From Mobula hypostoma (lineage: Eukaryota), in NCBI RefSeq assembly GCF_963921235.1, contig NC_086097.1:39682001-39746000 (forward strand): DNA of 64,000 nucleotides, written 5' to 3'. The position numbers were made by a program, and so were the translations under genes. Under the pieces are notes generated by a model that worked only from the letters and a program-made list of their open reading frames with translations, was not told the DNA's origin and did not search any database. This document shows positions 38,521-61,899 of the stretch, piece by piece (position 1 is the stretch's first letter; every line of letters begins with the position of its first letter).

Positions 38521-39887
38521 TTTTGTAGAATACCTTGGCTTCATGATAGTTATTTCCTAGCTCAACAGATGAAGCACGAGTTTCTTTCACTTGTTCACTG
38601 CAGTCATCAGAAGAGTCTGGGAAACCAACACAAGAATTGCTAATGAGATTTCTGCAATTGTCTGAAGGAGTCACAGTACAATGGGATGGTGGGAGAGCTC
38701 CCATGATAGTCTGTTACAGTGTATTGTTGACTGCAGAATATTTGCAATTTGCAATTGACTAAACTGCGTGTTTGTTATTTTCAGATCACTCAGAACATAT
38801 AAAGATATAATCAGGTTAGAAGGTGAACCATGCTGCACAATATTGAGTTCCTGGTTTGTAATAGGTGTCTTCCTTCTTCATGCTGAATTCCAATCTCAGA
38901 GCAGTGGCTAGCCAAAGTGTCTGAAAATTCATCAACAGCAGACATTCTTCCGACATTAATTTGTTCCTAACAGAAAATCAATTCTTTACTTGGAGCCGAA
39001 CTGCATTTGAGAGGGGAATTAGCACAAATACACTGATAGGCCACAGTGTTATGATCTATTAACAGTGGGATTGGTTAACATTTCATTCAAATTAATGAAT
39101 TCATTCTTCTTCCTTAAGAAGAGTTTTGACACCTGGAATTTCATTATAAAATGATGCCTCAATAAATGGTTAATTTTTAATACATTTTGTCAGCAATTTG
39201 TCCAATTGTGCCAAAGATCAATCAAAGAAGGTGGTGACTCATGATTAGTTTATTAAGGAGATACTGTGCAAAACCCACATGCAGAATTCCCAGAATGTAC
39301 AATGTTTGTTACAACATAAGGGGCTTGCCACTTAAAACTGTAATTTATTCTCTCAGAATGCAGTAAAAATTTTGAATAAAAAAATGTGTTGTACTGAAAA
39401 TAGCCTGCTCTAAACATGATTGAACATGACCTCACCCATTTTGTAAGGCATAGTTTTGTTGTGGTATTTGCAATTTGCAAAATGCTGCATTAATTTAAGG
39501 TATTAACATGCATTCCAGAATGTCACTGAGGATTAGAAATTCTTCCCTTAAATAGAAATACCAGTCTATTACTATGTGGATAACCTGCAACTATTTAGTC
39601 TGACCTCTCTGTCATCCAGTTTACAATTATGTTCCCTGTGCAACAGTGTTCATGTCTTTGAAAGCACAGTACATTATTTTCTTGACGATTGCATGACTTT
39701 AGCTTGTTGATGGGACTGATAGAGAGGATCACTGCAGTATCTGAGGCCGGGCCTCCATCTCTTAAAGTGCACCTTATCTTTAAGGCAACAACAGCCGGAT
39801 GAGGTGCAAAGATGCAGAAATGTTTTACACACCAAGGATGCCTGGAGGTCATTCCATTGTAATGTAAGTGGGAACTATGTTTTGGAA

Positions 39888-40033
39888 GCAACACACAGAA
39901 AATGCTGGAGGGTTTCGGCCCAAAATGTTAACTATATTCTTTTCCATAGATGCTGCCTGGTTTGCTGAGTTCCTCCAGCATTTTGTGTGTGTTGCTTGGA
40001 TTTCCAACATCTACAGGTTTTCTCTTGTTTGTG
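39888..40033. mobile_element. Mini PLE-derived insertion with a short inverted arm
   Basis: 14-bp TSD ACTATGTTTTGGAA at 39874 and 40034. 39888-39910 is inverted relative to the right arm. Confidence 0.88.
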
Positions 40034-40245
40034 ACTATGTTTTGGAAATAGGTGTCAATTGTGAGTCTCTGGAATATGGAGCAATGTTGGAAGGAATTCC
40101 AGTGTTTGGGCTTAGACCTGTGATCCTTCAGACAACTCACAACATACACGAGGTCTTACATCCCAACACTCTCTTGCACACTTGTATTCCCTCTCTTTGC
40201 TCTCTGTTCAGTCGCTCTCATTGGTTCCTTACATCTTCCACTGAC

Positions 40246-40820
40246 ACATAGAAACATAGAAACATAGAAACATAGAAAATAGGTGCAGGAGTAGGCCATT
40301 CGGCCCTTCGAGCCTGCACCGCCATTCATTATGATCATGGCTGATCATCCAACTCAGAACCCAGCCTTCCCTCCATACCCCCTGACCCCTGTAGCCACAA
40401 GGGCCATATCTAACTCCCTCTTAAACATAGCCAATGAACTGGCCTCAACAGTTTGCTGTGGCAGAGAATTCCACAGATTCACCACTCTCTGTGTGAAGAA
40501 GTTTTTCCTAATCTCGGTCCTAAAAGGCTTCCCCTCTATCCTCAAACTGTGAGCCCTCGTTCTGGACCTCCCCAACATCGGGAACAATCTTCCCACATCT
40601 AGCCTGTCCAATCCCTTTAGGATCTTATACGTTTCAATCAGATCCCCCCTCAATCTTCTAAATTCCAACGAGTACAAGCCCAGTTCATCCAGTCTTTCTT
40701 CATATGAAAGACCTGCCATCCCAGGAATCAATCTGGTGAACCTTCTTTGTACTCCCTCTATGGAAAAGATGTCTTTCCTCAGATTAGGGGACCAAAACTG
40801 CACACAATACTCCAGGTGTG
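40246..40820 (-). mobile_element. Young CR1 3' end
   Basis: ORF 40354-40833 and an (ATAGAAAC)n tail. Confidence 0.93.
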
Positions 40821-41296
40821 ACACAAGATGCATTGTGATTGGTGCAAATTTTTCTGGGCATTAAAGTAAAAAAAATGTGTGTGGGTTATTGCTTACCTTC
40901 ACCGGGTAGTGGGGAAAATATGACTTGTTTAGTATTAAAAGCAGTTGTAAGTTAGTCTGCAGATACCTTAATACCAATATAGTAATGGCCAACCCCACTC
41001 GAGTATTCTCTCTATTGCAATTACTTCTTGAGTTCAAAAACACACCCTCCGCTGGTGAGTGAGTCTGTGGAAACAAGGAACAGAAGGTAATTTAAATTGG
41101 TGTTTTACATCAGACTTCATGGTAGTGACACTGCAAATATTCAAAAATAAACAAATGTGTTGATTTCAGATAAAAAAGGAAGAACTTGTGGGAATCCCAA
41201 TCATAAGGGACAAAGTTTCGAGAAAGTAGAGAGAATAAAGGTAGTCAAGTTGCCAGGCCTGACAGCTTGAGTCCAAAGGTTGTAAAATAAGTGGCT

Positions 41297-41487
41297 ACCC
41301 ACATAAAAGTTGCTGGTGAACGCAGCAGGCCAGGCAGCATCTCTAGGAAGAGGTGCAGTCAACGTTTCAGGCCGAGACGTCGACTGCACCTCTTCCTAGA
41401 GATGCTGCCTGGCCTGCTGCGTTCACCAGCAACTTTTATGTGTGTTGCTTGAATTTCCAGCATCTGCAGAATTCCTGTTTGCGTTTG
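41297..41487. mobile_element. Mini fold-back PLE-derived element
   Basis: 69-bp arms at 41300-41368 and 41374-41442 with 2 mismatches. 13-bp TSD AAAATAAGTGGCT at 41284 and 41488. Confidence 0.92.
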
Positions 41488-42162
41488 AAAATAAGTGGCT
41501 GTAGAGATGGTCAGTCATTGATTGCAGTTTTTCTCACCAAGTTCCAAGAAGTTACCAGCAGAATGGTAAACTGCAAATGCAATGCATTTGTTCAAAAAGG
41601 AAGAGAGACAAAATGTGGAGAAGTATAGGCTAGTTACCTTAAGATCTTCTATGGCAAGATATTGCCACTTTGTAATCAAGGCAGAAATAGCTAGTCATTT
41701 AGAAAAGATTCATCCAATCAAGTCAAATCAATATTGTTTATGAAGGGGAAATCATATTTAACATGTTTTCTGGATAATAACAGGCAGTGTTCACAGAGGA
41801 AACCTGAAAATATGGTGATATTGGATTTCTGGAAGGCATTCCATAAGGTACCAATTAGATGGCTAGTATGCTAGGCAAGAGTTCACGGTTTTGGGTGAAG
41901 TGTGTAGACATGTTTTGAAGACTTGTTATCACATGATAGGCAGGGAGTCTGAATAAGCTGGTCTCTTTCACACTGGAAAAATATAACTAGGAGTGCCCCA
42001 AGGTTGCTGCTTGACTCTCAATTATTCACTATCTATTTGGAGGAGTGGAAAAGTGTAAAGCACACAGCCTTGCTGATGTCATAAAAATAGTGGAAATGCT
42101 GCAGTGTGGGTATGTGGACACAGCTGTAAGTTGGTTGTGTGAGTGGGCAAAGATTTGGTGAA

Positions 42163-43369
42163 CAGACACAAAGTGCTGGAGCAACTCAGTAGGCCAGGCA
42201 GCATCTATGGAAAGAGTAAAAGAGTCGATGTTTTGGGCCAAGGCCCTTCATTAGGACTAGTTTACTGTTCACTCTTTTCCATAGATGACCTGCTGTGTCC
42301 CTCCAGCATTTTGTGTGTGTTACTTTGGATTGCCAACATCTTCCAGTAAGGTGGCAGTGCATGCAAATGTAGCGGCCTCTTGGGGACTCAACAAAGGTGC
42401 ATTTTCCTTTGTAAAGGTTATTTTTTATGATCCAAGGACAATTTTATTCCAAGAACTTTGGGTACTGCAGGGCTACTCAATCAGTGAGCTGTTTGTGAAC
42501 TGGACTGATGTCAACACTGGAGCTGGCCGAGGTGTCAAAAGGGCCGGCCTTGATGTTGGAGAAGGAGCTGGCCGGGTTATCGGGAAAGAAGATGGTCGGG
42601 ATACTGGAGGAGCCTGCTGGGATGTCCTGCTGTAGGGTCTCGGCCCAAAATGTCGACTGTACTCTTTTCCATAGATGTTGCCTGTCCTGCTAACTTCCTC
42701 CAGCGTTGCTGCTGGAGTGTTGGAGGAGCCAGTTTGGGTTCAGAGGCGCTGACCTGGCTGCAGACTGTATTGCTGCCGGCTACTTGGAAGCATTACAGTT
42801 GGTGCAGTATAACCTTGGGAGATCGTCTCGGACATTTCACTTGTGATCACAAGACTCTGTTGGACAGTGATAATGTAAGTTGCCGCAGGCCTGTTACCCT
42901 TGTCTGGTGGTGGGATAGAGGACATGGAAGCGGTTATAGTGAGGACTAGGCCCCAAGCCTTGGGTTTACCTACTGCTATATATCGGGTGAGGGACGCGGA
43001 AGTGCTACAGCATGGTGCCCACACTTGGCTGGGTGCCTAGCCTCTCCCATCAGTGCTGCCCTCCTGTGTTTCAGCAGTGGAATGACAGGCATCTGCACAC
43101 TGCTGGGAGACTGTGCTATCGATTTTGCCGAACATTGTCACTCAGAATCTTGGACTTTATGTCTTCTTTTTGAATAAATACGTTTTTTCACTTGCTATTT
43201 TGAATTATCTTACTATTTTGAATGTTACTCGCTATTTTGAAATTTGCTTGCTACTTTAAATGTTTGCGCCTTGGCCCCAGAGCAATGCTGTCTCGTTCAG
43301 CTGTATCTCTGTATGGTTTGAATGATAATTAAACTTGTTTTGATTTGATCTGCAGATTTTCGTGTTAAT
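42163..43369. mobile_element. Mini fold-back PLE-derived element, interrupted by a ~1 kb insertion
   Basis: 11-bp TSD GATTTGGTGAA at 42152 and 43370. The arms span 42163-42341 and the tail resumes at 43348. Confidence 0.8.
42342..43347 (+). mobile_element. Non-coding retroelement with an L2/Rex-like tail; contains a small PLE copy at ~42620-42705
   Basis: Starts CCAGTAAGGTGGC, ends AATTAAACTTGTTTTGATTTG, and has ATCT on both sides. Confidence 0.55.
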
Positions 43370-44269
43370 GATTTGGTGAATACAGTTTAATGTAAGAAAG
43401 TATGAGGTCATGAACATTGATTGGAAGAATCAAAAGACAGACAATTATCCAAATGCAGAGGGACTGAAATGAGTGAAGACATACAGATCTAAGTGTGATA
43501 CCAAAAAAAATATATCATGTGCAGGTGAGGCAAGATATTCTGAAGACAAATTGCATGGTGGTTTTTTTTTAACTGGAGCATGAGCACTTAGAGAAGAAAT
43601 GTTCCATTTATACATGGTGGTGCTGAAGTTGCACCTGGAATCATGTGAAAACCTTTGTTCCCCATATTTAAGCTAGAGTACACTGGACTTGAAGGCGATT
43701 CTGAAGAGATTCATTATGGTTATTTCTGCTGTGTGTTGCCCCATCATGAATGGCTCTACAAGTTAGAACCGTAATCTATGGAGTTTAGAAGTATAAGGTC
43801 TGATCTTATTCAAACCCAGAAGAAAGTAGATGGATGTTGAAATCAATCCACTTGTGAGAGAACCCTGAATGAGGGGCCATAGTGAAAAGATACCCGGTCA
43901 CTGGAAACTGAATAGTGTTGGAATCTCCTCACAGACGATGGTTAAAATCTAGAATTCTCTAACCTGGAGTACTGTGGAAGCTGGGTATTTAAAGGGACAG
44001 ATAATTTTTTGAAGGGTTGGAGAACTCTACACAAAAGAAAAGATAAGGCCTGGGACAGATCAGTCATCAACATACTGAGTGGCAGGGTAGGTCTCAGAGG
44101 CTAGGTGGCTCATTCCTGCTCTGATTTTCTTGTGAGCTGTTGATAGGATGATTTCCTAAATCACTACAGACTTCAGAAATGTTTCCAGCTCTGCTGAAGA
44201 ACATCATAGCAGATAAGAGGTAGGAAAGGCTTATAATGGAAATTCCAGAAGTAGATGATGGCATTGCTG

Positions 44270-44625
44270 CCATTGGGTGAGGTGGTAGTGTGGGAGACAG
44301 TTGTGTTACCTTGTGCCACTGGCACCCCATGTTTGGTCTTGGCTTTGGTGTGCGGTTTGCACATTCTCCCTGTGGCTGTATGGATTGCTCCCGGTGTTCT
44401 CTGAATTTCTCCAATTTCCAGGGATGTACTGGTTAGTGATTTGGTTGACTATTGTGAAGTGTTTCTGGTGTGGACAGTTGTGGAAGAATCAAAGGGAGTT
44501 TGTGGGTAACTATGAAAGAATAGACTATGGGGGGAGGTGTGGTCCATCGGGTTTGCTTGGGGGTGAGGTGGGGAGGTGGGCTTGACATGAACTTGCTGGG
44601 TTGAATGGGCTCATTCTGTATCCTG
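44270..44625 (+). mobile_element. Old V-SINE-like element
   Basis: Core GTTTGCACATTCTCCCTGTGGCTGTATGGATTGCTCCCGGTG resembles the vertebrate V-SINE central domain. Confidence 0.6.
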
Positions 44626-44689
44626 AGGAAACATTGGAAATAATCAGCCCCAATTCTACTTAACTGAACAATTTATTTACTGTAATAGT

Positions 44690-45400
44690 AACACACACAA
44701 AATGCTGGAGGAACTCAACAGGTCAGGCAGCATCTATGGAAATGAATCAAGAGTTGATGTTTTGGCTGAGATCCTCCATCAGGACTGGAAAGGAAGGGGG
44801 AAGATGCCAGAATAAGAAAGTGGATGGAGGGAAGGAGGACAGGCTATGAGGTGATAGGTGAAGTTAGGTGGGTAGGGAAGGAGTTGAAGTAAGAAGCTAG
44901 GAGGTGGTAATTGGAAAAGGCAAAGGTCAAGGGCTGGAGAAGAAGGAATCTGACAAGAGAGGAGAGTGGACCATAGGAGAAAGGGAAGGAGGAGGGGCAC
45001 TGTGGGAAGGTAATAGGCAGGTGAGGAGAAGAGGTAAGAGGCCAGAGTGCAGAATAGAAGAAGAGAGAATGTGGAGCAGAAAAAAAAATAACCAGAAGGA
45101 GAAAATGATGTTAATGCCATCAGGTTGGTGGCTACCTAGATGGAATATGAAGTGTTGTTCCTCCAACCTGAAAGTAGCTTCATCAAGTCAGAAGTGGAAA
45201 CCATAGACCAACATATTGGATCAGGAATGGGGATAGGAATTAAAATGGTTGACCACTGGGAAATTCCACTTTTTGCAGATGGAGCGAAGGTGCTTGACAC
45301 AGCAATCCTCAAATTTGCATTTGGTCTCACCAGTGTAGAGGAGCCACATTGGGAACACTGGATACAGTAGACAACTCCAACAAATTTGCAGGTGAAGTGA
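44690..45400 (-). mobile_element. Penelope-like 3' fragment
   Basis: ORF 44927-45166 starts MEEQHFIFHLGSHQPDGINI, and the terminal repeat lies at 44690-44785. Confidence 0.88.
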
Positions 45401-45801
45401 TCTTTAATAGTATTGCATATATTTCAAGAGATGCTACTTCATTTTATTATATTTTTCAATGTAGGTTACTAGTACTTGAGTTATCTAATTTCTTTGTAGT
45501 GTAACAATGCAATCTCTGTACCTTTTGCTGCAAGACCTGCTTGTTTGAGATCAGTGTTTAGAAAACTATTATTCAGTGTAATTTAGCGCCTCTTTCTTGG
45601 CCACATTTGTCCTAAGGCTTTATAATATTTTGCCTTCCCTTCATCTGTAGGTGGCACTGGACAAGTAATACTTAATACTTCCCTCGTGGGAAATGAGTAA
45701 AATGTGATATGTAGATCTGAAAACAGTTTTGGATCAGTCAGAGTGTGGTTGACATTTCTTCCTGTAATGAACACTCATTTCCCAGCTCTCTTCAATACTT
45801 A

Positions 45802-46100
45802 CGAGGGGTGATTGATAAGTTCATGGCTTAAGGTAGAAGGCGTCAATTTTAGAAAATCTAGCACATTTATTTTTCAACATAGTCTCCTCCTACATTTACA
45901 CAAATAGTCCAATGGTCGTGGAGCATACGGATCCCTTCTTTGTAGAAATCAGCGTCTTGGACCTCCAGAAAGTGGTCCACAGCAGGGGTGATTGATAAGT
46001 TAAGTTCGTGGCCTAAGGTAGAAGGAGATGAGTTATTAACTTCAAACTTTCTGTATAACACTCAAAGAGTTGAACTGGACGTGCATGTAACGAGAGCTGT
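45802..46100. mobile_element. Rearranged mariner element fragment
   Basis: TA followed by CGAGGGGTGATTGATAAGT. Minus-strand transposase C-terminus FYKEGIRMLHDHW..CVNVGGDYVEK. A second TIR-like copy lies at about 45984. Confidence 0.8.
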
Positions 46101-46539
46101 CTGAGATGTGGAAGGGTTGGATGGACAGTAGTTATTTCGATGGACCCTAGATTATGGTCTCTGGGGACTTTGCTATTCCCTGCATGGGGGATGGCGGGAG
46201 ACTGGAACAAGTGCGGGTAGGGAAGAGGGGAGGGTTGATTGATGCATTCGCTGCTGCTTGTGTGTGTAAGGGAGGAGGCAGGCTTTGACGTCCTAACATT
46301 TTTCTGTCATTTGTTCTTTGGGGTTTTCCTTCTGTTTCACAGATGTCTGTGAAAAGAAAGGATTTCAGATCGTATACTGTATACATTCTCTAAATTGCAC
46401 CATTGAACCATTGACATTCTTAATGATCAATAAATCAATTGTTTGGAATCAAATGACCTTACCTGGTGTCTAAGGCCACTTTCAAGGAACCATGTATTTT
46501 ACTTCTTGATCCTTATTCTGTTATGTATCTCAATAAATA

Positions 46540-47610
46540 AATATTATCTTATCCAGGTCTCCTGCAAATTCTTCTTTCACTTCCCATGCTGTTGGATATA
46601 CCTGATCAGGCCTGGAAATTTATGCGTCTTCATACATTTTAAGACATTCAACACCTCCTCTGCTGTAATGTGAACTATCCTCAAGACATCCTCATTAACT
46701 ATCTCAAATTCTGAAGTCCTTATGCCTTTCTCCATGGTAAAATAACAGGGGAAATATATTCTTGTATACCTTGCTTATCTTCTATAGCTGCTCGGAAGGT
46801 TGTTCACTTTGGTCTTTTAGGGGCCCTATTTTGTCTTTAATTACCCCTTTTCCATTAATGTACTTAAAAAATCTCTTTGGATTTTCCTCAATCTTCTCTG
46901 CCAAAGCTATCTCTGCCACCCTCCCCCCACCCCCCTCCATTGGGCTTCTGATTTCCTTTCTAAGTATCCTCCTGCATTCCCCTCTTCTCCAGAGATTGAC
47001 TTGATCCCACCTGTACCTGCACCATGCCTCCTTCTTTTTCCTGACCAGAGCCTCAATATCCCTCATCATCCACAGTTCCCTAACCCTGCCAGCATTTCCC
47101 TTCACTTTAACAAGAATATCCAGACCTTGAACTCTTGCTATTTCACTTCTAAAATCCTCCCATTTGCCAGGTATCTCTTTGCCAGCAAACAGCCCACTCC
47201 AATCAACTTTTGCAAATTTCTGTTCAATACTGTATTTATACTGAACTTTGAAATTTGCCTTGTCCAAATTTAGATCTTTAAGTTGTGGTCTCTTTCCATA
47301 ACTAATTTAGAATCATGGACACAGGTTCTAAAGTACACCCCCCCCCCACAACTGATAGCTCAGTTGCTTGTCCCACCATTTTTTTCAAGAGTAAGTCAAG
47401 TTTTGCCTTTGTTCTAGTAGGGCCTTTTATATATTCCCTGAGGAAACTTCTCTGAGCATACTTAAATTCTACCCTTAGTACTCTGGCAGACCTAGTCTAT
47501 ATTAGGAAAGCTAAAATCCCCTACTATGTCAAGCAAATTTCCACAGATTTCTGCAATCTCCCTGAATATCTGTGCCTCTAATTTCTGTTGACTATTAGGG
47601 GGCCTAGATG
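46540..47610 (-). mobile_element. Old CR1 ORF2 fragment
   Basis: ORF 46782-47267 (LAEKIEENPKRFFKYINGK..IGPLKD). Confidence 0.85.
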
Positions 47611-48046
47611 TTTAAAACGTAGAATTGCTTTAGAAACCAATACGTTTGCAATGCAGAATTTGTGGATATTCATAATATCAAAGATACCATGTATATATTG
47701 GGGAAATGACTTTGCAAGGTTGCTATTAGAGATTTACATCTTGCTTTTTCATTTGTGCTCATGAAGTGTTTAAGGTCGAGATTTTTGTCTTTACTGTGCC
47801 TTATTATACAGCAGAATGCCTTTGGGTGCTTTAGACCCAATCAATTATTTTTGAGAGTAGGCAACTTTGTTGCGTGTTGAACAGAGTGGTGAACAGATCA
47901 CTTCGGTACACAGCCAGGACCTACAGATCAGATGAATGACTGTACTGTAGATTTATTTGCACTGACAACAAATGTTGCCAAACTAATCTTAAAGCCACTT
48001 TATCTGTTGCTGCTTGTGAAATCTACTTTAACTTGTAACATAACTA

Positions 48047-48634
48047 CAGGGGTCCCCTGCTTTCCGAACGTTCTCTTTACGACATTTCGCTTTTACGAAT
48101 GACCTACATTAGTACCTGTTTTTGTTAACCGAAAGAGGATTTTCGCTTTCACGAAAAAAGACGCTCGCTTTAAACTTGAGTTTACCCCGAGAAAGACTAC
48201 CATGACCATGAAGCCTTGCGTGGGCAGGTGTGTGCGCATGCGTAGCGTGCGAATACGTGTATGTGTGCATGTGTGACGTGTGTGTACGTGTGAATGTATG
48301 ACGTGCACATGTGTGTACGTGCCGATTTTTTTCAACAAATCGATTTTGGCTCAAACTTCCCGATTCTGTTAAGTGAAACTACACTGTACATACATTATTT
48401 CTACCTTATATAGGCTGTGTATTTATCGTATGATTCCTGCTTTTGCTATATGTTAATGTTATTTTAGGTTTTATGTGCTATTTGGTATGATTTGGTAGGT
48501 TATTTTTTGGGTCTGGGAACGCTCAAAAATTTTTCCCATATGAATTAATAGTAATTGCTTCCTCGCTTTATGCCATTTCAGCTTACGAACGGTTTCATAG
48601 GAATGCTCTACATTCGGATAGCGGGGGAAACCTG
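48047..48634. mobile_element. Tigger-like MITE
   Basis: Imperfect TIRs CAGGGGTCCCCTGCTTTCCGAA / TTCGGATAGCGGGGGAAACCTG, with TA on both sides. Confidence 0.82.
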
Positions 48635-48735
48635 TATTCTTGATACTCTGTGCAGTTTATTCCACATTCTTCTTGTGTGCAACCTTTCACAAAATATTTT
48701 CTTCAGTGTTGACATACCTATCCAGTGAATAAGAT

Positions 48736-48915
48736 TTTGCAAACATGAGAAATTCTGCTTATGCTGGATCCAAGGCAACACAAACAAAATGCTGGAGGAA
48801 CTCAGCGGGCCAGTCAGCCTCTATGGAAAAGAGTAAACAGTTGATTCCTGTTTACTCTTTTCTATAGGTGCTGTTCGGCCTGCTGAGTTTCTCCAGCATT
48901 TTGTGTGCGTTGCTC
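48736..48915. mobile_element. Mini fold-back PLE-derived element (older subfamily)
   Basis: Arms of about 66 bp meet at CAG-TTGATTC-CTG near 48845. 10-bp TSD TGAATAAGAT at 48726 and 48916. Confidence 0.87.
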
Positions 48916-48995
48916 TGAATAAGATGTCCTTTTTTTTAGGTAGGTTTTAAAGTTTGCTGAATTAAAAAAAAACTTTTAAGCAGTTCCAATAAATG

Positions 48996-49187
48996 CAATC
49001 ACCGGCTGATGGTGTAATGGCACCGGACTTCGAGGCAAGTGGTCCCAAGTTCGAATCCGGCTGGCTCCTTGCATGTTTTCCATCCATGCTGGGTTGAGCA
49101 TCGAGCTGGCAGCTCGGCCTCATAAAAAACAGGTAAATGCTAGAGAAGGTTGCTGCCCGATACTCCAGAAGGCATGGAGAGGAACAA
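48996..49187 (+). mobile_element. tRNA-derived SINE
   Basis: A box TGGTGTAATGG, B box GTTCGAATCC, a (CAA)-type tail, and TSD CAATAAATG at 48987 and 49188. Confidence 0.8.
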
Positions 49188-49956
49188 CAATAAATGTAGC
49201 TACAGGCCCAAGACTAAATATCCTGCAATGATGTGCTTGGCTACACAATACCTTTGTAAACTCTACATGGCACAAGCCAGTAGTGTGATGGAAAACTCTT
49301 CAATTACCTGATATTGCCTGTTCAAATGCTGAACAAACAATCCTACTTGATTGCCACTTGCTCTTTCATTATGAGTAATATCTTCTGCCATCACTTAGCT
49401 TGGAAGGAAAGTGAAACAAATGTGTATCATTTGTCTTTAAAGGTGCCAGGTTGGTGCTGGGAACCAGGCTGGATAGGCCCTCTCTATGGTGGCACTTATA
49501 AACCTTTCCATCCCCAGTTACAACTGCCTGTCACAATCTTAGGTCAAGAATGATGGATAATGAGTCTTGGATCAAGATGAGGCAGTGATCCCTGTGTAGA
49601 CTGATTTGGTGAGAACTCTAAAAAAGAAACTATACAGTATATTACACCTTTGCATTTGAGTTAGGGTTACATATCATTGACAACAACCTCCACACTTCCA
49701 CCTTTCACTGTGGATCTGCAGACACCAAGAAGTGGTGTCAATTTTACTCCATCGCAACAGAGAGGGCCGACAACCTTGGCATTATTACTACATCAAACTC
49801 CAGACCAATTTCGTCAGAGGGGAGGGAACGTCGATTCAGACCATGAGAGATCTGCGACAGGCATTTTCATTTCATCAGAAGTCAAAATTTTAAATGTGAA
49901 TTCGGATGAAGAATCAGTCCTAGATGTTAGCCAGTTGTCTTTGGTCAAAATGAAGC

Positions 49957-51242
49957 AGGAAAATAGAAACATGGAAACATAGAAACCCTACAGCACAATG
50001 CAGGCCCTTCGGCCAACAAAGCTGTGCCGAACATGTACTCACCTTAGAAATTACCTAGGGTTACCCATAGCCCTCTATTTTCCTAAGCTCCATGTACCTA
50101 TCCAGGAGTCTCTTAAAAGACCCTATTGTTTCCGCCTCCATCACTGCCACTGGCAGCCCATTCCACACACTCACCACTCTCTGCATAAAAAACTTACCAC
50201 TGACATCTCCTCTGTACCTACTTCCAAGCACCTTAAAACTGTGCCCTCTCCTGCTAGCCATTTCAGCCCTGGGGAAAAGCCTCTGACTATCCACACGATC
50301 AATGCCTCCCATTATCTTGTACACCTCTATCAGGTCACCTCTCATCCTCCATCGCTCCAAGGAGAAAGGGCCAAGTTCACTCAACCTCTTCTCATAAGGC
50401 ATGCTCCCTAATCCAGGCATCATCCTTGTAAATCTCCTCTGCACCCTTTCTATGGCTTCCACATTTATCCTGTAGTGAGGCGACCAGAACTGAGCACAGT
50501 ACTCCCAAGTGGGGTCTGACCAGAGTCCTATATAGCTGCAACATTACCTCTTGGCTCTTAAACTGAATCCCACAGCTGATGAAGGCCAATGCACCGTATG
50601 CCTTCTTAATCACAGAGTCAACCTGCGCAGCAGCTTTGAGTGTCCTATGGACTTGGACCCCAAGATCCCTCTGATCCACCACACTGCCAGGAGTCTTACC
50701 ATTAATACTAAATTCTGCCATCATATTTGACCTACTAAAATGAAACACCTCACACTTATCTGGGTTGAACTCCATCTGCCACTTCTCAGCTCAGTTTTGC
50801 ATCCTACTGATGTCCCACTGTAACCTCTGACAGCCCTCCACACTATCCACAACACCCCCAACCTTTGTGTCATCAGCAAATTTACCAACCCATCCCTCCA
50901 CTTCCTCATCCAGGTCACTTATAAAAATCACGAATAGTAGGGCGTCCCAGAACAGATCCCTGAGGCAAACCACTGGTGACCGACCTCTATGCAGGATATG
51001 ACCTGTCTATACTAACTCTTTGCCTTCTGTGGGCAAGCCAGTTCTGGATCCACAAAGCAAGATCCCCTTGGATCCCAATCCTCCTTACTTTCTCAATAAG
51101 CCTTGCATGGGATACCTTATCAAATGCCTTGCTGAAATCCATATACACTACCTCTACTGCTCCACCTTCATCACTGCGTTTAGTCACATCATCTACTGCT
51201 CTACCTTCATCAATGTGTTTAGTCACATTGATGAAGGTAGAG
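49957..51242 (-). mobile_element. Young CR1 3' portion
   Basis: Collinear RT ORFs from 50061 to 51313. AAAATGAAGC at 49947 and 51243 is a candidate TSD. Confidence 0.93.
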
Positions 51243-52659
51243 AAAATGAAGCTTAGGGTTAGAAATTGTTTACATTTAAATATAGACAAGTACATGGTAA
51301 GTATTTTTGTCATTCCTGAATTATTTTAATGACCATGTTAGCAAATGCTCCCAATGAAACATCAGGAAAACCCATAAAGAATTTAGCCTGCTTTATTACT
51401 GACAATAATTACTGGAATGCACTGCATTTTGATGCTGTCAAAAGGGTTTACATTCTCTACAGAAAGTAAGAGATTGTATACTCCAATCAATAACAATTAA
51501 CAGGAAGCACAAGAAAAGCATTAAGCTTAGGGAGCTGAATGTTCTGCCCTCTGACATAAAGCTTGCGAGCTATCAATCAGAGGCTAACAATCTATTACAT
51601 TCATTGACCTTAAATGTCACTCTGTTCATTTGCCTGTGGATGTTAACTGCCTTACTAGTACATGTATGTGCTCCACTTACTATACAATAACAAATACACC
51701 ACTGACTGTGAATGAAAGGAAAATAGAGTTTTCAAAGTAACAAAATCAGGAAATATGACTTGCCTGTAAACAAAACCTCAAGATTCTAAACAAAGTAATG
51801 CCTCTAAGGCAGAATTCGTCATAGCACCACACCCATTCCAAATTTTAGTCCTAAATACTTTCAAAGCAATAAATGTTTACTCTCATAAATTTTTGAGAAG
51901 CATTAATTACTGCATTCACAGCCGGGAACCTAACCTCAAAGTCAGTTGAATAAAATATCCAAGAAATGCCAGAAAATACTTCTGAGGAAATAAAGGACCA
52001 AAGACTTGATCAAGCAACCTAAACCTCTTAAGGTAAACTAGCGAGTTAGTCACTGATGCTTTATTCTAGGTTGATGGTTAAACTTCTAGACATCAGATAT
52101 AATATTTCCTTCATGTTTGCAATGGGAAGGGCTTTGCTTCCTTGCCTGTGTTTGTTGATTAGTTTGAGTACAGTTGTGGAGGGTCTATTACGAGATTGAG
52201 TTTAGGCATCAGGAAGACAGCTGGGCAGAGGAATCCTCCTTAGGGGGACTGGGAGGATAGTACGTAGATTGCTAATGCACAAAATCAGGGTTAAAATTCC
52301 ACTTTTACTGAGGTGCTTTTGTTTCATCACTGAGGCACAGCTCTTCAGCCGCGAAGCCTTGTAGTTTTGCATAGTTGGCGCTGTTAATGGCTTTCTGGGC
52401 CAGATGGGCATGAACAGAAGGAACACGTATAGACGCAGAGGGAGCCCACTTCATCCTCTGTTGCTTTGTTAGATTTTTTAAACTGTTGTTCAGTTATCAC
52501 AACCTTCTTCACACTTTTTCTGTGGCCCTTTTCACTTATTTCTCTTCAACCATCAATTCAAATGCCTTTTGACAATTATTGTTGAATATTTATCTACAAC
52601 CATTCCCAAATGACAGTGACATGTTCTTATCCCGGGTGTTCATTGACCCTTGAATCAGT

Positions 52660-53012
52660 GTCTCATCTCAGCCAGCTCCATCATGGGCACAAGCCTCCCC
52701 ATCATCGAGGACATCTTCAAAATGTGGTGTCTCAAGAAAGTGGGATCCGTCACTGAGGACCCTCACCATCCAGGACATGCCATCTTCTCATTACAACCAT
52801 TGGAGCCTGAAGACCCACTTCACAAACAGCTTCTTCCCCTCTCCTATCAGATTTCTGTATAGTCCATGAACTCTACCTTACTATCCCTCTATTGCACTAT
52901 TTATGTTTTTTTTTGTTTATTTGTTCATTTGTAACTATAGTAACTTTAATGTCTTGCACTAGACTGCAGCCACAAACTGTACGTCAGTGATAATAAACCT
53001 GATTCTGATTCT
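52660..53012 (+). mobile_element. Rex1/Babar 3' fragment
   Basis: Homologous to 370-612 (ISASSIMGTSLPIIEDIF..DPHHPGHAIF), ending in an AATAAACCTGATTCTGATTCTGA tail. Confidence 0.78.
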
Positions 53013-53244
53013 GAACCCCTCTGTTACAGGAAACATTGAACGTATTGCTTTTGGCCCCATGTGGAAATCCTAAACGTCGCTGCCTGGGACTTTTCTTGCT
53101 GCCAGCTGATGCTGATGTTAGCATCTGCACTGTGCAAACTTCTCTCAGTGCCAGTCAGCGATCCTTCTCTGCCCAGAACGATCAAACCCAGTAGATTTAA
53201 AATGACATTGGTAAGTGAAAATCTGCTGGATTTCTGGTGAAAAA

Positions 53245-53368
53245 TCATGATAAAGGGTCTTGACCCCAAACGTTGACTGTTCATTCATTTCCATAGAAGC
53301 TGCCTGACAGCATTTTGTGTGTATATGTGTTGCTTTGGAGCTTCAGCTTCATCAGAATCTCTTGTATC
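53245..53368 (+). mobile_element. Decayed short PLE terminal copy
   Basis: AGGGTCTTGACCCCAAACGTTGACTG..CAGCATTTTGTGTGT. Confidence 0.7.
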
Positions 53369-53829
53369 TTATTTCTTTCTGCTTCTGCTAGCTTTCAACT
53401 GAGGGACTTAACACTTCTCTTTTGTTATAAAAACAACCCTTCCCATACAGTAGTATGGACAGCTACTTAATCTATTTCTGGCTGTTTAGACTGCCCTTTT
53501 TATTCATTTTGAAGATGTGGCGATTGCTGTTCTTCCATGATCACTCGTGAGAGGTGATGGCAAAATGAATGCCTTCATGAGCAGTCTTTGTGTAGGTACT
53601 CGCTCAATGCTGCTGTGTAGATCATTTGAAGATTTAAGTCCAGTGATGATGAAGGAACAGTGTTGTATTACTAAGTCAGGGTGGTGTGTGATCTGGAGGG
53701 AATCTGCAGGTAGTGGTGTTGCTAAGCCTCTACTGTTTTTCCTCAATAAGTATTTTAGATATCTGAGGTTTGCTAGATGCAGTTGGGAAAGTGTTGGCAG
53801 GTTGTTTCAATGTGCTGCTCTCATTAGAA

Positions 53830-55290
53830 TTATAGAGTCATAGAGCTGTACAGCATTGAAACAGGGCCAACGGCCCACATAGTCCATACTGAACTGTTAT
53901 TCTGCCTAGTCCCATCAATCTGCACCTGGACCATAGAAACATAGAAACATAGAAAACAGGTGCAGGAGTAGGCCATTTGGCCTTTCGAGACTGCACCGCC
54001 ATTCAGTACGATCATGGCTGATCATCCAACTCAGAACCCTGTACCTACCTTCTCTCCATACCTCCTGATCCCTTTAGCCACAAGGGCTATATCTAACTCC
54101 CTCTTAAATATAGCCAATGAACTGGCCTCAACTGTTTCCTGTGGCAGAGAATTCCACAGATTCACTGCTCTCTGTGTGAAGAAGTTTTTCCTCATCTCGG
54201 TCCTAAAAGGCTTCGCCTCTATCCTCAAACTGTGACCCCTCGTTCTGGACTTCCCCAACATTGGGAACAATCTTCCCTCTATATCCCTCCATACCCCTCT
54301 CATCCATGTACTTATCCAAACTGCTCTTAAATGTTGCAATCAAAGCTGCCACCGTATCTTCCACTGACCTGCTTATTCCACACTTGCACCAGCCTCTGAG
54401 TGAAGAGGTTCCCCTTAAATATTTCACCTTTCACCTATAATTTATGACCTCCAGTTCTAATCTCACCTCTCGCCAATGGAAAAAAGCCTGCTTACATTAA
54501 TCATAACTGGACCCTTCATAATTTTGTATATCCCTATCAAACCTCCCCTCATTCTCCTATGCTCCAGGGAATAAAATCCTAACCTATTCATAGCAAGAGG
54601 ATTCGAGTACAGGAGCAGGGAGGTACTACTGCAGTTGTACAAGGCCTTAGTGAGACCACACCTGGAGTATTGTGTGCAGTTTTGGTCCCCTAATCTGAGG
54701 AAAAACATTCTTGCCATAGAGGAGTACAAAGAAGGTTCACCAGATTGATTCCTGCGATGGCAGGACTTTCATATGATGAAAGACTAGATCAACTAGGCTT
54801 ATACTCTCTGGAATTTAGAAGATTGAGGGGGGATCTTATTGAAACGTATAAAATTCTGAAGGGATTGGACAGGCTAGATGTAGGAAGATTGTTTCCGATG
54901 TTGGGGAAGTCCAGAACAAGGGGTCACAGTTTGAGGATAAAGGGGAAGCCTTTTAAGACCAAGATGAGGAAAAACTTCTTCACACAGAGAGTGGTGAATC
55001 TGTGGAATTCTCTGCCACAGGAAACAGTTGAGGCCAGTTCATTGGCTATATTTAAGAGGGAGTTAGATATGGCCCTTGTGGCTAAAGGGATCGGGGGTAT
55101 GGAGAGAAGGCAGGTACAGGGTTCTGAGTTGGATGATCAGCCATGATCGTACTGAATGGCGGTGCAGGCTCGAAGGGCCGAATGGCCTACTCCTGCACCT
55201 ATTTTCTACGTTTCTATGTTTCTATTCAACTGTTCCCTTTTACTCAGGACCTGGCAACATCCTTGTGAATTTTTTCTGTACTCTTTCAGT
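53830..55290. mobile_element. Old minus-strand CR1 3' end carrying two young CR1 3' ends in opposite orientation (53933-54275 minus, 54591-55221 plus)
   Basis: ORFs 54031-54339 and 54745-55146 share the same C-terminal peptide. CTATTCA flanks the plus copy at 54584 and 55222. Confidence 0.88.
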
Positions 55291-56225
55291 CAGCATCAGG
55301 AAGGAACACCCACCACCAACAGTTAAAGAAAGCAACTGTACTCCTCACAAAGTCCCGTCGTACCACAGTGATATGGATGTTTGGCTGAGCAGAGAAAAGT
55401 GGGGAGTTCAAAGACGGTCGGGAGGTGATAGGTCCAGGGTAGTTATTCACAGCATGGAAATAGTTTCATCCGCACCAAGAAAATTCCTAAATCTTTCCCA
55501 ATAACACCTTCCTGTCAGGGAACATAAATTTCCACCTCTTTTCCTCCTTGCCCATGCATTATATTGACAAAGAGATCAATCATTTGTGACACTATTTATT
55601 TTTTAATCATTTAGCAATGAGAGATACAGCCCAATTACCAGCATTTTATAAAATCTGTCTCTTATGAGTCTGCCTCTCTTTTATAAATGATCCATAACTT
55701 GGTTGATATAGAATGCTGAGAATCCCAGTAGACACAGACCATTAGTATTCGCTCATCTCCCTTACACACTATGGCAACAGAAATTCATTTCAAGAAGCAA
55801 TTAACAGAAAGAAGCTTAAGATAGTCTCCGATGATGCTTTAAGTCACTGGCTGATAAAATGCAGAGGAGGCCACTGGCCCATTTTAACCTTGCCAGCTCT
55901 TTGAAATGGCCTCTCATAAATCCCATTCCCCAGTCTTCCTGGTAAGCTTGCAATAGGTGAAATTGGGAAAGATTTAGGAATCTACCTGATTTCCTACTGA
56001 AAGCTCTTTTAATTCTGGTCTGGCAGCTACTTAATTAAATCTCTACTTAACCTTGTTTGCTCAAAAGAGAATAATCCAACCCCAGCTTTTCCAAACTCTG
56101 CAAATAATTTCTCAACCTTTGAATTGCTTTGTTTAATGTTGTTTGCACTTCCTCTGTGATATTCACATCCTTCCCAAAGTCAGGAATCCAGAGTTAATCA
56201 CAATACTCAGATGCAGAATAACAAT

Positions 56226-56411
56226 CATCAAAGTTGCTGGTGAACGCAGCAGGTCAGGCAGCAGCCCTAGGAAGAGGTACAGTCGACGTTTCAGGCCGGG
56301 ACCCTTCGTCGACTGTATCTCTTCCTAGAGATGCTGCCTGACCTGCTGCGTTCACCAGCAACTTTGATGTGTGTTGCTTGAATTTCCAGCATCTGCAGAA
56401 TTCCTCTTGTT
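56226..56411. mobile_element. Mini fold-back PLE-derived element
   Basis: 63-bp arms at 56226-56288 and 56307-56369. 14-bp TSD TGCAGAATAACAAT at 56212 and 56412. Confidence 0.92.
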
Positions 56412-56960
56412 TGCAGAATAACAATGCTTGGAGTTGGCAATGAAGCTGCAAATGCCGTTTCAAATCTTGATATAGTCTCAAGGAAGCCACTTTTTTTTTC
56501 TCTCTGCAGAACTCCAGTGAGCCGAAGATCATCTAGCAGACTCTCTCTGCATGGGATAATCCTTTCATCTGAAGAATCAATTTAGCGATTTTTATACTGC
56601 TTGTCGGATAAATACATCCAGACCTTGATAACTGGACCAAAACCAGCAAAGTACACTACCCCACAAATGATCTTGCCAGTTCTGTCCCTGTAATACCCAA
56701 GTCAATAATAACAAAGCCTATTTTCCCGCACTTGATTGCATATAAATGAGAACCTCAATCCCCATCTACTTAAGTAACATTTTTGTAAAATCTATTAAGA
56801 ATGTTCTAGGAACCAGAGAAATTTGCTTAATTATGATCAATGTATCTAAGAATCCTATCTTTGAACCTTGGATATAGTCTGTCAAATCCTGAGAAATGTT
56901 GCTTCCTCTATGTTAATGTTATCTCCAGGTTTGACTACTCTTGTATATTTCTCATCTAGC

Positions 56961-58490: not shown

Positions 58491-58973
58491 GTGATGACAT
58501 GCTCTGTAACTCTCTGAAATAACTGCACCTCTAATCCTGGACTCTCCAACTTCCCTGAATTTAATCACTCTACTATTTTACAATTGCGGAAGAACATTTA
58601 CAATCTAAGAATCCCTGGGAACATTTGAAGAATATTACTGATAAGCATCAGGCTTCTTTAATTTCATAGAAAGGAAACTATACCTTTCAGGGCTGATCAA
58701 CCATGGTTCAGCAGGAGATCCTTCAGTTTGCCTTTCATTAGATTCATATTTCTTTAATTAGCCTCCACTAACTTGGCTATTCCATTATCTTCCTCTTTGT
58801 GGGGCTAAAATCTCTACTCAAGGGGATATTTTTCTTTTCACCCTATTTATGCAAAAACTGAAGATTATATAAGGTTAACAACAGGAATTCTGCAGATGCT
58901 GGAAATTCAAGCAACACACATAAAAGTTGCTGGTGAACGCATCAGGCCAGGCAGCATCTCTAGGAAGAGGTGC

Positions 58974-59008
58974 AGTCGACGTTTCAGGCCAAGATCCTTC
59001 GTCAGGAC
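58974..59008 (-). ncRNA. Predicted minimal type I hammerhead ribozyme (inverted arm)
   Basis: The minus strand reads GTC-CTGACGA-AGGATCTTGGCCT-GAAAC-GTC-GAC. Confidence 0.7.
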
Positions 59009-59286
59009 AAACTGAAGGAAGAGTGAGTAAGGGATCTGAAAGTTGGAGGGGGAGGGGGAGATCCGAAATGATAGGAGAAGACAGGAGGGGGAGGGATGGA
59101 GCCAAGAGCTGGACAGGTGATAGGCAAAAGGGATACGAGAGGATCATGGGACAGGAGGTCCGGGAAGAAAGACAAGGAGGGGGGAGGGGACCCAGAGGAT
59201 GGGCAAGGGGTATATTCAGAGGGACAGAGGGAGAAAAAAGAGAGTGAGAGAAAGAATGTGTGTATAAAAATAAGTAACAGATGGGG

Positions 59287-60205
59287 TTCTGGAGACAGCT
59301 TATCCACTGGTGTCTACTATAAGCCTACTGACTCTCACAGCTATCTGGACTATTCCTCTTCTCACCCTGTCTCTTGCAAAAACGCCATCCCCTTCTCGCA
59401 ATTCCTCCGTCTCCGCCGCATCTGCTCTCAGGATGAGGCTTTTCATTCTAGGATGAGGGAGATGTCTTCCTTTTTTAAAGAAAGGGGCTTCCCTTCCTCC
59501 ACTATCAACTCTGCACTTAAACGCATCTCTCCCATTTCACGTACATCTGCTCTCACTCCATCCTCCCGCCACCCCACTAGGAATAGGGTTCTCCTGGTCC
59601 TCACCTACCACCCCACCAGCCTCCGGGTCCAACATATTATTCTCCGTAAATTCCGCCACCTCCAACGGGATCCCACCACTAAGCACATCTTTCCCTCCCC
59701 CCCTCTCTCTGCATTCCGCAGGGATCGCTCCCTACGTGACTCCCTTGTCCATTTGTCTCCCCCATCCCTCCCCACTGATCTCCCTCCTGGCACTTATCCG
59801 TGTAAGCGGAACAAGTGCTACACATGCCCTTACACTTCCTCCCTTACCACCATTCAGGGTCCCAAACAGTCCTTCCAGGTGAGGCAACACTTCACCTGTG
59901 AGTCGGCTGGGGTGATATACTGCGTCCGGTGCTCCCGATGTGGCCTTTTATATATTGGCGAGACCCGACGCAGACTGGGAGACCGCTTTGCTGAACATCT
60001 ACGCTCTGTCCGCCAGAGAAAGCAGGATCTCCCAGTGGCCACACATTTTAATTCCACATCCCATTCCCATTCTAACATGTCTATCCACGGCCTCCTCTAC
60101 TGTAAAGATGAAGCCACACTCAGGTTGGAGGAACAACACCTTATATTCCGTCTGGGTAGCCTCCAACCTGATGGCATGAACATTGACTTCTCTAACTTCC
60201 GCTAA
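59287..60205 (+). pseudogene. 5'-truncated but uninterrupted PLE ORF: RT thumb, Cys linker and GIY-YIG endonuclease
   Basis: VYYKPTDSHSYL, PCKRNKCYTC, VIYCVRCSRCGLLYIGET..RFAEH and LEEQHLIFRL..PDGMN. Confidence 0.92.
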
Positions 60206-60498
60206 TGCCCCACCTCCCCCTCGTACCCCATCTGTTACTTATTTTTATACACACATTCTTTCTCTCACTCTCCTTTTTCTCCCTCTGTCCCTCTGAATAT
60301 ACCTCTTGCCCATCTTCTGGGTCCCCCCCCCTTGTCTTTCTTCCTGGACCTCCTGTCCCATGATCCTCTTGTATCCCCTTTTGCCTATCACCTGTCCAGC
60401 TCTCGGCTCCATCCCTCCCCCTCCTGTCTTCTCCTATCATTTTGCATCTCCCCCTCCCCCTCCAGCTTTCAAATCCCTTACTCACTCTTCCTTCAGTT

Positions 60499-60534
60499 AG
60501 TCCTGACGAAGGGTCTCGGCCTGAAACGTCGACT
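60499..60534 (+). ncRNA. Predicted minimal type I hammerhead ribozyme
   Basis: AGTC (stem I), CTGACGA, AGG..CCT (stem II), GAAAC, GTC^, GACT (stem I'). Predicted cleavage after 60530. Confidence 0.75.
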
Positions 60535-61899
60535 GCGCCTCTTCCTATAGATGCTGCCTGGCCTGCTGCGTTCACCAGCAACTTTGATGTGTGTTGATTA
60601 TATAAGGTTGTTCCGTACTTCAAACCTATATCTAAACCTTTAAATTCTACATTTTAATTATAGGGCTTTACAGGCACCCATTTATAAGTCAGCATGTACC
60701 TATCAAGTTTTCAGAGTCATCTAGCTTTGTACTCCGTAATACTTAAGAGAATTTTTAATCTTTAATTACTTTCACAGTGCAATGGCACTTGAAAAATTAA
60801 CTGTCAGTACAAAATAACCGAGGGAGAATTATCATATTAAAGCTAAGACCTTTTATTGGTTTTGCCTGTCTTATACATGCATCCATCTGGAGACCTGAAT
60901 ACTCCTGAATTTATTGCACGATTTAACAAAATACAGCTGTTGTTATGAAACATATTTGATAGAAAGAATTGGTAAGGTTTAGGATAAATGCGCCATGCTA
61001 AACGATTAGATGTAGTCCATAATGAAACGTCATGGATAAATAAAGTCATAGAGGTAAAACTGAAACGACACCAAAAGTACAGACAAGAATTGCCAGGAAC
61101 AGAAGGGAAAAGAAAGTGAAAAGGAAATAGAAAGTAAGATTATTGGCAAGTATAAGAAAAAATAATACTCTTAAGGACATGAATAATGTAATAAAGTTAG
61201 AATAGGAAGAGGAGCACAGGCAATGATAGTAAGTGGATGAAACTGAACAGGTAGGATCTAGAGATACTAGCAGGGTAAACGTGACATTGGATGGAAGGAT
61301 CGATCCAATAGTGAGGATAGAACATGTGTTCTTCTTTGTGGGGAGACCAAAACGAGATATCATAAATGCAAGGATGTGATATCAGGAAGTAGCAGAGATA
61401 TAGTAAAGGCCATGGGACTGGGCACTATTCTAGCTGTCGTTACTGATGATCTGCCCTCCAAAGCAAGCTGCAGTACTGAACAAGCTGCTCAGGCCAGTGA
61501 GGTCTCTGGCATCTACTCTACCATGTGGCAAAATGCCCTGTTCACAAAACAAAGGGGAAATATAATTTGCCTAATTAGCTGACTTGAATCATCAGCAAAA
61601 CAATGCAAGGTGTCTTTGGTAGTGCTATCAAGTGGCACGTACTCAACAATAACCTCCTTACCAACACTCATTTTAGTTTGTTATCTTATGTAGAGAAACA
61701 GCACAGTAACAGGCCCTTCTAGTCCGCGAGCCTGCACCACCCAATTAACCTGCTGAGACATATGTCTTTGGAATGTGGGAGGAAACTGGAACACACAGAA
61801 GAAACCAGAGTTTTCACCAGGAATGTTCACCTCTAAGCTAATTTAGCCTTCATCCAAACATGGACCAAAAAGTTGAATTCCAGATGAAGTGAGTGTGAC

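Follow-up and report, generated by a model that had tools for sequence, protein, structure and literature searches.

Miniature two-armed insertions of a Penelope-like element in Mobula hypostoma turn at short inverted microhomologies

The subject of this analysis is a group of five small fold-back elements in a 64,000-nucleotide stretch of the Mobula hypostoma genome (assembly GCF_963921235.1, contig NC_086097.1, positions 39,682,001 to 39,746,000 of the forward strand; hereafter the window, numbered from its first nucleotide). Each element consists of two oppositely oriented copies, or arms, of the 3' end of a Penelope-like element (PLE), a terminus that carries a putative hammerhead ribozyme motif. 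We propose that the five are probably extremely short versions of the two-armed (inverted) insertion known for PLEs, in which complementary DNAs (cDNAs) made from both nicked target strands anneal to each other. Junction counts across the genome indicated that the turn of these hairpins follows short inverted microhomologies and not the hammerhead cut.

A repeat search of the window returned close inverted arm pairs at 41294-41448 (75 nt, 95%), 48768-48920 (73 nt, 82%), and 56220-56375 (69 nt, 93%), and the inverted arms at 39888-40033 and 42163-42348 were recognised by eye in the sequence. In order of position the elements are called c1, c2, c3, c5, and c4 (Table 1). All five were found to be bounded by exact target site duplications (TSDs) of 14, 13, 11, 10, and 13 bp, respectively, and among young genomic copies that had been picked irrespective of their flanks, exact flank repeats of 9 to 17 bp were present in 20 of 20. 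As a control, the left and right flanks of different elements were paired for 30 other genomic fold-backs (870 pairs); the longest common word had a mean of 4.8 nt and reached at least 8 nt in 1.7% of pairs. The exact TSDs of the window copies and the young copies therefore mark single insertion events. Each of the five window fold-backs had one arm with a tail and one without. The four uninterrupted copies were 146 to 191 bp long as a whole and contained no open reading frame (ORF), both arms being cut down to ~25 to 140 nt. The remaining copy, c3, is a ~185-bp fold-back whose tail is split by ~1 kb of unrelated non-PLE sequence (42342-43346, boundaries set by eye), with the last 23 nt of the tail at 43347-43369. 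The initial annotation of the window had described five TSD-flanked insertions made of two arms only; the inverted arms and the exact 10- to 14-bp TSDs were confirmed, but 42163-43369 holds more than two arms. The insert in c3 has ATCT at both borders and includes a further PLE arm fragment (42623-42707); nested insertion and template switching in reverse transcription are both possible origins.

BLAST of the arms against the window showed them to be 90 to 95% identical to the 3' end of the PLE copy at 58877-60595 and returned 13 further single copies. The match of the ORF fragment of this copy to GIY-YIG (E value of 2.3e-4, 21.8 bits) was borderline, just below the cut-off of 22.6 bits. The fragment had 86 longer relatives (E values down to 2e-95), most of them with precomputed RVT_1 matches and 21 with GIY-YIG Pfam matches; an intact reverse transcriptase (RT) was not seen within the window itself. 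The predicted combination of RT and GIY-YIG in the relatives is the architecture of endonuclease-positive (EN+) Penelope-like elements, and the fold-backs share with derivatives of such elements the terminal identity, the one-sided tail with an adjoining inverted truncated copy, and the variable TSD. Among the named relatives were proteins from a bamboo shark and an electric ray and, at 36 to 45% identity, from invertebrates including a sea cucumber, a snail, and a tick, a list which shows that the PLE clade of the ORF fragment is widespread. Larger two-armed copies were sought in 200 kb of arbitrarily placed genomic sequence, and copies of 0.9 to 2 kb with 14- to 16-bp TSDs were present (loci L010, L011, and L018), supporting a continuous size series from the miniatures up to kilobase-sized two-armed copies with an ORF.

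Arm positions are given on a ruler of profile positions built from an alignment of 15 window copies. The shared arm is preceded by AGTC-CTGAYGA-stem-GAAAC-GTC and then GACT, with the 5' strand of helix I at positions 44-47, CTGAYGA at 48-54, stem II at 55-67, GAAAC at 68-72, and GTC at 73-75, the cut falling after 75. A GT-rich stretch follows at ~133-146, and the last 36 to 40 nt, the tail, end at ~181; a tail was scored as present when an arm extended to position 170 or beyond. Copies were found to terminate either at ~141-153 (tail-less) or at ~176-181 (tail-bearing). The tail-less arm thus stops ~40 nt before the true 3' end, in the GT/AC-rich stretch, while the other arm includes the 36- to 40-nt tail, and the outer ends are ragged, varying by up to ~10 nt between copies. 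At loci L059, L060, L065, and L085 (TSDs of 12 to 14 bp) the tail-less arm ended at positions 102-134, not at ~141-153, and the second start site is therefore preferred, not fixed.

The hammerhead core and its stems could be read by eye at 60499-60535, in 26058-26195 (minus strand), and in 42163-42258 (minus strand); in the PLE copy at 58877-60595 the cut would lie between 60530 and 60531. No hammerhead was matched by Rfam in the whole window at the gathering threshold (0 matches of any family), and a search of 60400-60650 at E values up to 10 gave four chance-level matches, none of them a hammerhead. The Rfam hammerhead models perhaps miss a minimal motif since they include stem III. Because these models fail to match, the ribozyme is called putative here, on the conserved-core motif alone. 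The motif fits the minimal hammerheads of PLE terminal repeats, which, in the available text of PMC4209133, have a CUGAYGA core, stem II, GAAAC, and GUC but no stem III loop, a layout proposed there to act as a dimer; the putative hammerhead described here shares this layout. The ATG in CUGAUGA was considered as an ORF start, as in the anole element, and was set aside, the c2/c4 subfamily reading CUGACGA. Three further loci with AGTC/GACT junctions (L061-L063, at C1:3874695, C1:43181517, and C1:120872518) have one strand that encodes a complete hammerhead core with helix I lengthened by the whole hairpin stem, ~65 bp.

In the window itself, the turn lies near the cut in most copies. The junction of c2 reads GAGAC:GTCGACTG (colons mark the turn, square brackets a microhomology), with the arm start 3 to 5 nt upstream of the cut, at 41379. 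That of c4 reads CCCTT[CGTC]GACTG, a 4-nt microhomology whose ambiguity places the arm start 0 to 4 nt upstream of the cut; the end of this element was set at 56412 because its right TSD begins at 56413. In c1 the two arm readings overlap in a 9-nt microhomology, TGCTGGAGG, and the right (direct) arm has its start close to the 5' boundary of the hammerhead, away from the cut. It had been noted earlier that the right arm starts near GTC^GACTG (^ marks the cut) in four copies; an arm does start within ~5 nt of the cut in c2, c3, c4, and c5, but at 48736 it is the left arm that is the full one.

Junctions were surveyed in the whole 3.48-Gb assembly by exact-pattern counts, the pattern consisting of two inverted arm segments flanking the cut and separated by a variable spacer. 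For one subfamily and spacers of 0 to 120 nt, a total of 12,798 fold-backs was obtained, with 1289 places at spacers of 0 to 30 nt, 6635 at 31 to 60 nt, 3559 at 61 to 90 nt, and 1315 at 91 to 120 nt. The reversed pattern, counted per spacer band as a control, gave 0 places in every band. Thus 11,509 of the 12,798 fold-backs (90%) had a spacer longer than 30 nt. For the older subfamily, a pattern of its own matched 318 places (spacer 21 to 50 nt) and 429 places (51 to 80 nt), and here too the junctions were scattered. The first 50 places in each list were inspected; those of the 0- to 30-nt list followed coordinate order on contig C1, with no similarity-based choice. Places with spacers of 31 to 60 nt were read singly, about half of those at 61 to 90 nt were read singly and the rest scanned for near-cut arm ends, and those at 91 to 120 nt were scanned likewise. 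In nearly all of the 150 longer-spacer places (50 per band), both arms continued across the cut and ended within the ribozyme or on its far side; most often, both ended near the ribozyme 5' edge at positions 44-52. A reading in which an arm begins with the nucleotide that follows the cut was possible in 28/50 places at 0 to 30 nt, 0/50 at 31 to 60 nt, 0/50 at 61 to 90 nt, and 1-2/50 at 91 to 120 nt. Weighted by list size, cut-site arm starts made up ~6% of all, close to the share expected, by a rough estimate, if two ends were evenly distributed over the 120 nt sampled. The proposal of the initial annotation that the turn maps to the ribozyme cleavage site therefore fails at genome scale. The same annotation had stated that breakpoints explained by microhomology, with no concentration at GTC^, would speak against it, and this is the pattern that was found.

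The recurrent junctions were instead mostly accounted for by inverted matches. A script was used to map all inverted matches of at least 3 nt in the junction stretch of the window's own PLE copy. The map contained GTCGAC (6 nt), TTCAG/CTGAA (5 nt), the 4-nt matches ACGT, GGCC, GACG/CGTC, AGTC/GACT, TCAG/CTGA, and CTTC/GAAG, and GTC/GAC pairs (3 nt), and it returned exactly the sites of the recurrent junction classes. Among the 50 smallest-spacer places these classes were GAGAC:GTCGACTG (c2-type, 13/50), CCCTT[CGTC]GACTG (c4-type, 9/50), GGCCGA[GAC]TG (6/50), the perfect palindrome CAGTC:GACTG (5/50), CGTCAG[GACT]G with the whole ribozyme core kept (4/50), GTCGAC:GTCGAC (3/50), and a palindrome centred on GGCC (3/50), with 7/50 other junctions. 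Of these 50 small junctions, 30 lay on inverted matches of 3 to 6 nt. All six GTC x GAC pairings were represented as junction classes, one of them being the commonest class at 31 to 60 nt, CGTCAGGAC:GAAGGG (9/50). Some turns coincide with the cut because the cut centres the sole 6-nt palindrome, GTCGAC.

The same junctions were found to have formed repeatedly. Every major junction class contained arms with TA, TG/CA, and CG dinucleotide haplotypes, all three of which are also found in the single PLE copies of the window, and the haplotype was concordant between the two arms of a copy in 47/50 places (hand count). Among 36 pattern-derived copies with flanks, arm identity averaged 0.932 within a copy compared with 0.862 between copies, a within-copy value that was reached in 0 of 2000 permutations, and at five polymorphic sites the arms agreed in 33 to 36 of the 36 copies against a chance expectation of 15 to 24. 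The tail was present on either the short or the long arm within a class, in ratios (short:long) of 5:4 for the c2-type, 3:3 for the GGCCGA[GAC]TG type, and 1:2 for the type with the full hammerhead core. The mixed haplotypes, the concordant arms, and the variable position of the tail therefore indicate that the same junctions arose again and again from different template variants. Two points of the initial annotation, that the arms of one copy share variants and that the copies are separate events, are borne out by these data together with the individual TSDs. Pairs with an identical junction 4 to 45 kb apart were also seen (C1:13257890 and C1:13261847; C1:42753176 and C1:42783021; C1:168412519 and C1:168457407) and look like local segmental duplications carrying the fold-back.

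Exactly one tail was present in 29/30 and 15/16 sampled fold-backs (44/46), in addition to all five window copies, and the larger two-armed copies with clear TSDs (58877-60595, L010, L011, and L018) followed the same rule. Since independent choice of the two start sites would give one tail in at most half of the copies, the observed proportion speaks against such independence. An earlier impression that the tail is always on the short arm (17/17 copies, 6 c4-type and 11 c2-type) was withdrawn, as the pattern-derived samples show both orientations; the uniform orientation arose because whole-copy BLAST queries bias the selection of copies.

Together, these data support retro-type insertions of PLE terminal sequence that were made from both target strands, and we infer the following order of events, including the annealing of the cDNAs. 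The PLE RT/GIY-YIG enzyme would nick both target strands ~9 to 17 bp apart, giving rise to the TSD, and each 3'-OH would prime reverse transcription on the 3' part of the PLE RNA. A distal start would produce the arm with the 36- to 40-nt tail, and a start ~40 nt upstream, in the GT/AC-rich stretch, would produce the tail-less arm. Both cDNAs would be minus-sense and could therefore pair only at short inverted matches, where their 3' ends would be extended on each other to complete the fold-back. Matches of this kind abound in the hammerhead region (AGTC/GACT, GGCC, ACGT, and GTCGAC) because its helices are inverted repeats, so that many turns would fall inside it and a few on GTC^GAC, the palindrome around the cut. 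In vitro, both target strands are cut and then extended by a PLE enzyme, whose reverse transcription begins at two neighbouring internal sites marking the limits of the tail, and insertion does not require hammerhead cleavage (PMC11167929). Of the mechanism first suggested for the window, in which the RT/GIY-YIG enzyme copies self-cleaved short RNAs from both nicked strands, the two-strand retro-insertion is retained and the self-cleaved template is not. Snap-back of a single cDNA was also considered and rejected by reasoning, as it predicts either a tail on both arms or an inverted duplicate of the flanking target sequence, neither of which was seen.

Several observations sit less easily with annealing at microhomologies. 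The commonest small class, GAGAC:GTCGACTG, has a microhomology of only 2 nt; it is perhaps frequent because the cDNAs anneal across a 15-nt quasi-palindrome with GGCC at its centre or because the RT stalls at the folded core. Where the spacer does not exceed 30 nt, one arm begins at positions 71-80 in 43/50 places while the other arm is variable; microhomology covers most of this clustering but perhaps not all of it, and RT stalling or some cleaved templates could contribute. In the c4-type, the tail was on the short arm in 5/7 copies (5:1 plus one two-tailed copy), a mild asymmetry. The junction classes were assigned by hand in the first 50 places per list, all on contig C1, and the exact-match patterns cover two subfamilies, so diverged copies are undercounted.

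A more novel reading is that the insertions are two-armed by design. Subunits of a dimeric enzyme would copy the same RNA twice, from the distal and the proximal start and onto different target strands, and the cDNA form of the hammerhead helices would then close the insertion. One RNA copied twice by a dimer would account both for the single tail in 44/46 copies and for the same template variant in both arms. We offer this reading tentatively, as possible but less likely than not.

It is unlikely that the fold-backs multiply as whole hairpin units, in the manner of non-autonomous elements such as miniature inverted-repeat transposable elements (MITEs) or short interspersed elements, with each junction type descending from one founder. 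Such amplification would explain why whole c4 and whole c2 each matched 39 to 40 near-full-length copies at 90 to 98% identity among 40 candidates scored (first-look candidates numbered 2990 for c4 and 1720 for c2), and why the junction of the query was shared by 6/7 (c4) and 9/11 (c2) aligned copies. However, these samples were chosen by similarity to the query and are hence biased. The tail is on either arm within one junction class, as in the 5:4 ratio of the pattern-derived c2-type copies, three arm haplotypes corresponding to PLE variants occur in each class with both arms in agreement, the outer ends vary by up to ~10 nt, and no arm difference shared across copies was seen.

Distinctly improbable, in our judgement, is the idea that short RNAs released by the hammerhead, with a 5' end of GACUG, served as templates and that the hairpin turn marks the ribozyme cut. 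The 28/50 smallest-class junctions readable with an arm starting exactly at the G after GTC and the four of five window copies with an arm start within ~5 nt of the cut are consistent with it, and three GAC microhomology classes match the expectation for a cDNA ending in CAGTC-3'. But the small-spacer elements are only 1289 of the 12,798, cut-site arms are rare overall, and the classes that can be read as cut-site starts coincide with GAC/GTC microhomologies. The largest small class, GAGAC:GTCGACTG, starts 3 to 5 nt upstream of the cut with native sequence, and its template was therefore uncut. Of ~40 single arms found in 286 kb, none has its start at the cut, and the published enzyme inserts uncut RNA, with no RNA-seq reads ending at the hammerhead site (PMC11167929).

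An origin as MITEs of a DNA transposon, for which, according to the initial annotation, one shared junction and fixed terminal inverted repeats would speak, or as palindromes formed at the DNA level through replication or repair, is very unlikely despite the hairpin shape and the flanking direct repeats, as TSD length varies from 9 to 17 bp, the ends are ragged and non-equivalent (one with the 36- to 40-nt tail, the other without), and the arms derive from the 3' terminus of a retroelement whose longer, ORF-bearing copy lies nearby.

The form described here is the known inverted PLE insertion in miniature. Inverted or "complex tandem/inverted" PLE insertions with pseudo-long terminal repeats (pseudo-LTRs) and a one-sided tail of 30 to 40 bp have been described (Evgen'ev & Arkhipova 2005, Arkhipova 2006, as cited in the available text of PMC8557442). 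As in the window, an inverted 5'-truncated copy abuts a direct copy in those insertions, the tail is at one end only, TSD length varies, the terminal repeat contains a hammerhead motif, and the coding partner combines RT with GIY-YIG. Unlike them, both arms here are ~25 to 140 nt long, there is no ORF, and copies number in the thousands. Junction microhomology and arm agreement were measured here, and no such measurement was found in the literature consulted on inverted PLE insertions. The literature search, which did not extend to subscription papers and supplements, likewise returned no description of PLE hairpins below 200 bp in such numbers or of junction rules. The initial annotation had known of no description of the form; this holds for the hairpins of less than 200 bp, for which no published account was found, but not for the general form, which is that of the known inverted PLE insertion.

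Outside PLEs, a comparable process is the twin priming that Ostertag and Kazazian reportedly described in 2001 for human LINE-1 (L1), in which the second strand is said to prime internally on the RNA and the two cDNAs to join at a microhomology, leaving a TSD-flanked inversion. In L1 the two segments come from different parts of the RNA, whereas here both arms copy the same stretch, giving a hairpin; and the internal start of reverse transcription here is a preferred site, whereas in L1 it is chosen by homology to the target. MITEs are likewise small, hairpin-shaped, and flanked by duplications, but their terminal inverted repeats are equivalent and derive from a DNA transposon and their TSD length is fixed, neither of which holds here. 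Animal retrozymes, as portrayed in the available parts of PMC7229834 and bioRxiv 10.64898/2026.07.22.740005, resemble the fold-backs in being short, non-coding, hammerhead-bearing, and PLE-related, but are tandem direct repeats that give circular RNAs. The arms here form inverted pairs, not tandem ones, with at most one complete core, and most of the small copies keep only part of the ribozyme. In Schistosoma, pairs of hammerhead motifs 100 to 700 bp apart on opposite strands are reported in the available text of PMC4209133.

The coordinates of the PLE-derived features of the window are collected in Table 1. Two other repeats were noted. The segment 53933-55225 is an unrelated inverted repeat with arms totalling ~346 nt (133 + 213 nt, 95% complementary) around ~600 nt, perhaps a further transposon bounded by long terminal inverted repeats. 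Between c1 and c2, at ~40230-40820, lies a different interspersed repeat that opens with a short tandem motif.

Table 1. PLE-derived insertions in the window, with their target site duplications and arms
Feature	Position	Strand	TSD	Arms and other parts
c1, fold-back	39888..40033		39874-39887 / 40034-40047 (14 bp)	Tail-less inverted arm 39888-39911 (24 nt, arm positions ~121-144); direct arm with tail ~39903-40033
c2, fold-back	41297..41487		41284-41296 / 41488-41500 (13 bp)	Tail-less minus-strand arm 41297-41378, into hammerhead helix II; tail-bearing plus-strand arm from 41377-41379
c3, composite	42163..43369		42152-42162 / 43370-43380 (11 bp)	Minus-strand arm 42163-42260 with complete hammerhead core; plus-strand arm 42260-42341, starting within ~4 nt of the cut
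c5, fold-back, older subfamily	48736..48915		48726-48735 / 48916-48925 (10 bp)	Tail-bearing full arm on the left, minus strand, 48736-48846, start within ~4 nt of the cut; tail-less plus-strand arm 48848-48915
c4, fold-back	56226..56412		56213-56225 / 56413-56425 (13 bp)	Tail-less minus-strand arm 56226-56306/10; tail-bearing plus-strand arm from 56307-56311
Larger two-armed PLE insertion, c2/c4 subfamily	58877..60595		58863-58876 / 60596-60609 (14 bp)	Minus-strand arm with tail, 58877 to ~59283 (~400 nt); plus-strand copy, 5'-truncated, with ORF end 59285-60205 (GIY-YIG), 3' untranslated region, hammerhead core 60499-60535, and tail-less end
Single-arm 5'-truncated PLE insertion	26058..26195	minus	~14 bp, one mismatch, by eye	Tail and complete hammerhead core
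PLE arm and partial tail joined directly to a PLE ORF fragment	8080..8165	plus		Partial tandem arrangement of the kind that forms pseudo-LTRs

According to the available text of PMC8557442, how PLEs assemble their "complex tandem/inverted" copies is undefined, and the process has been reconstituted only partly in vitro (PMC11167929). Both RT starts, the junction, and the TSD of a miniature lie no more than 200 bp apart, and independent copies number in the thousands; the miniatures are therefore a natural record of finished integration events. One tail per insertion, arms of the same variant, and junctions at inverted microhomologies are constraints on any mechanism, and the attractive idea that self-cleavage of the ribozyme defines the template is now unsupported. 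For annotation there is a risk that such hairpins are mistaken for MITEs or for microRNA-like precursors. If the insertions are indeed two-armed by design, the genome would hold, as a by-product, more than 10,000 perfect hairpin loci matching the terminus of the element, and these loci could supply double-stranded RNA to small-RNA silencing of the element.

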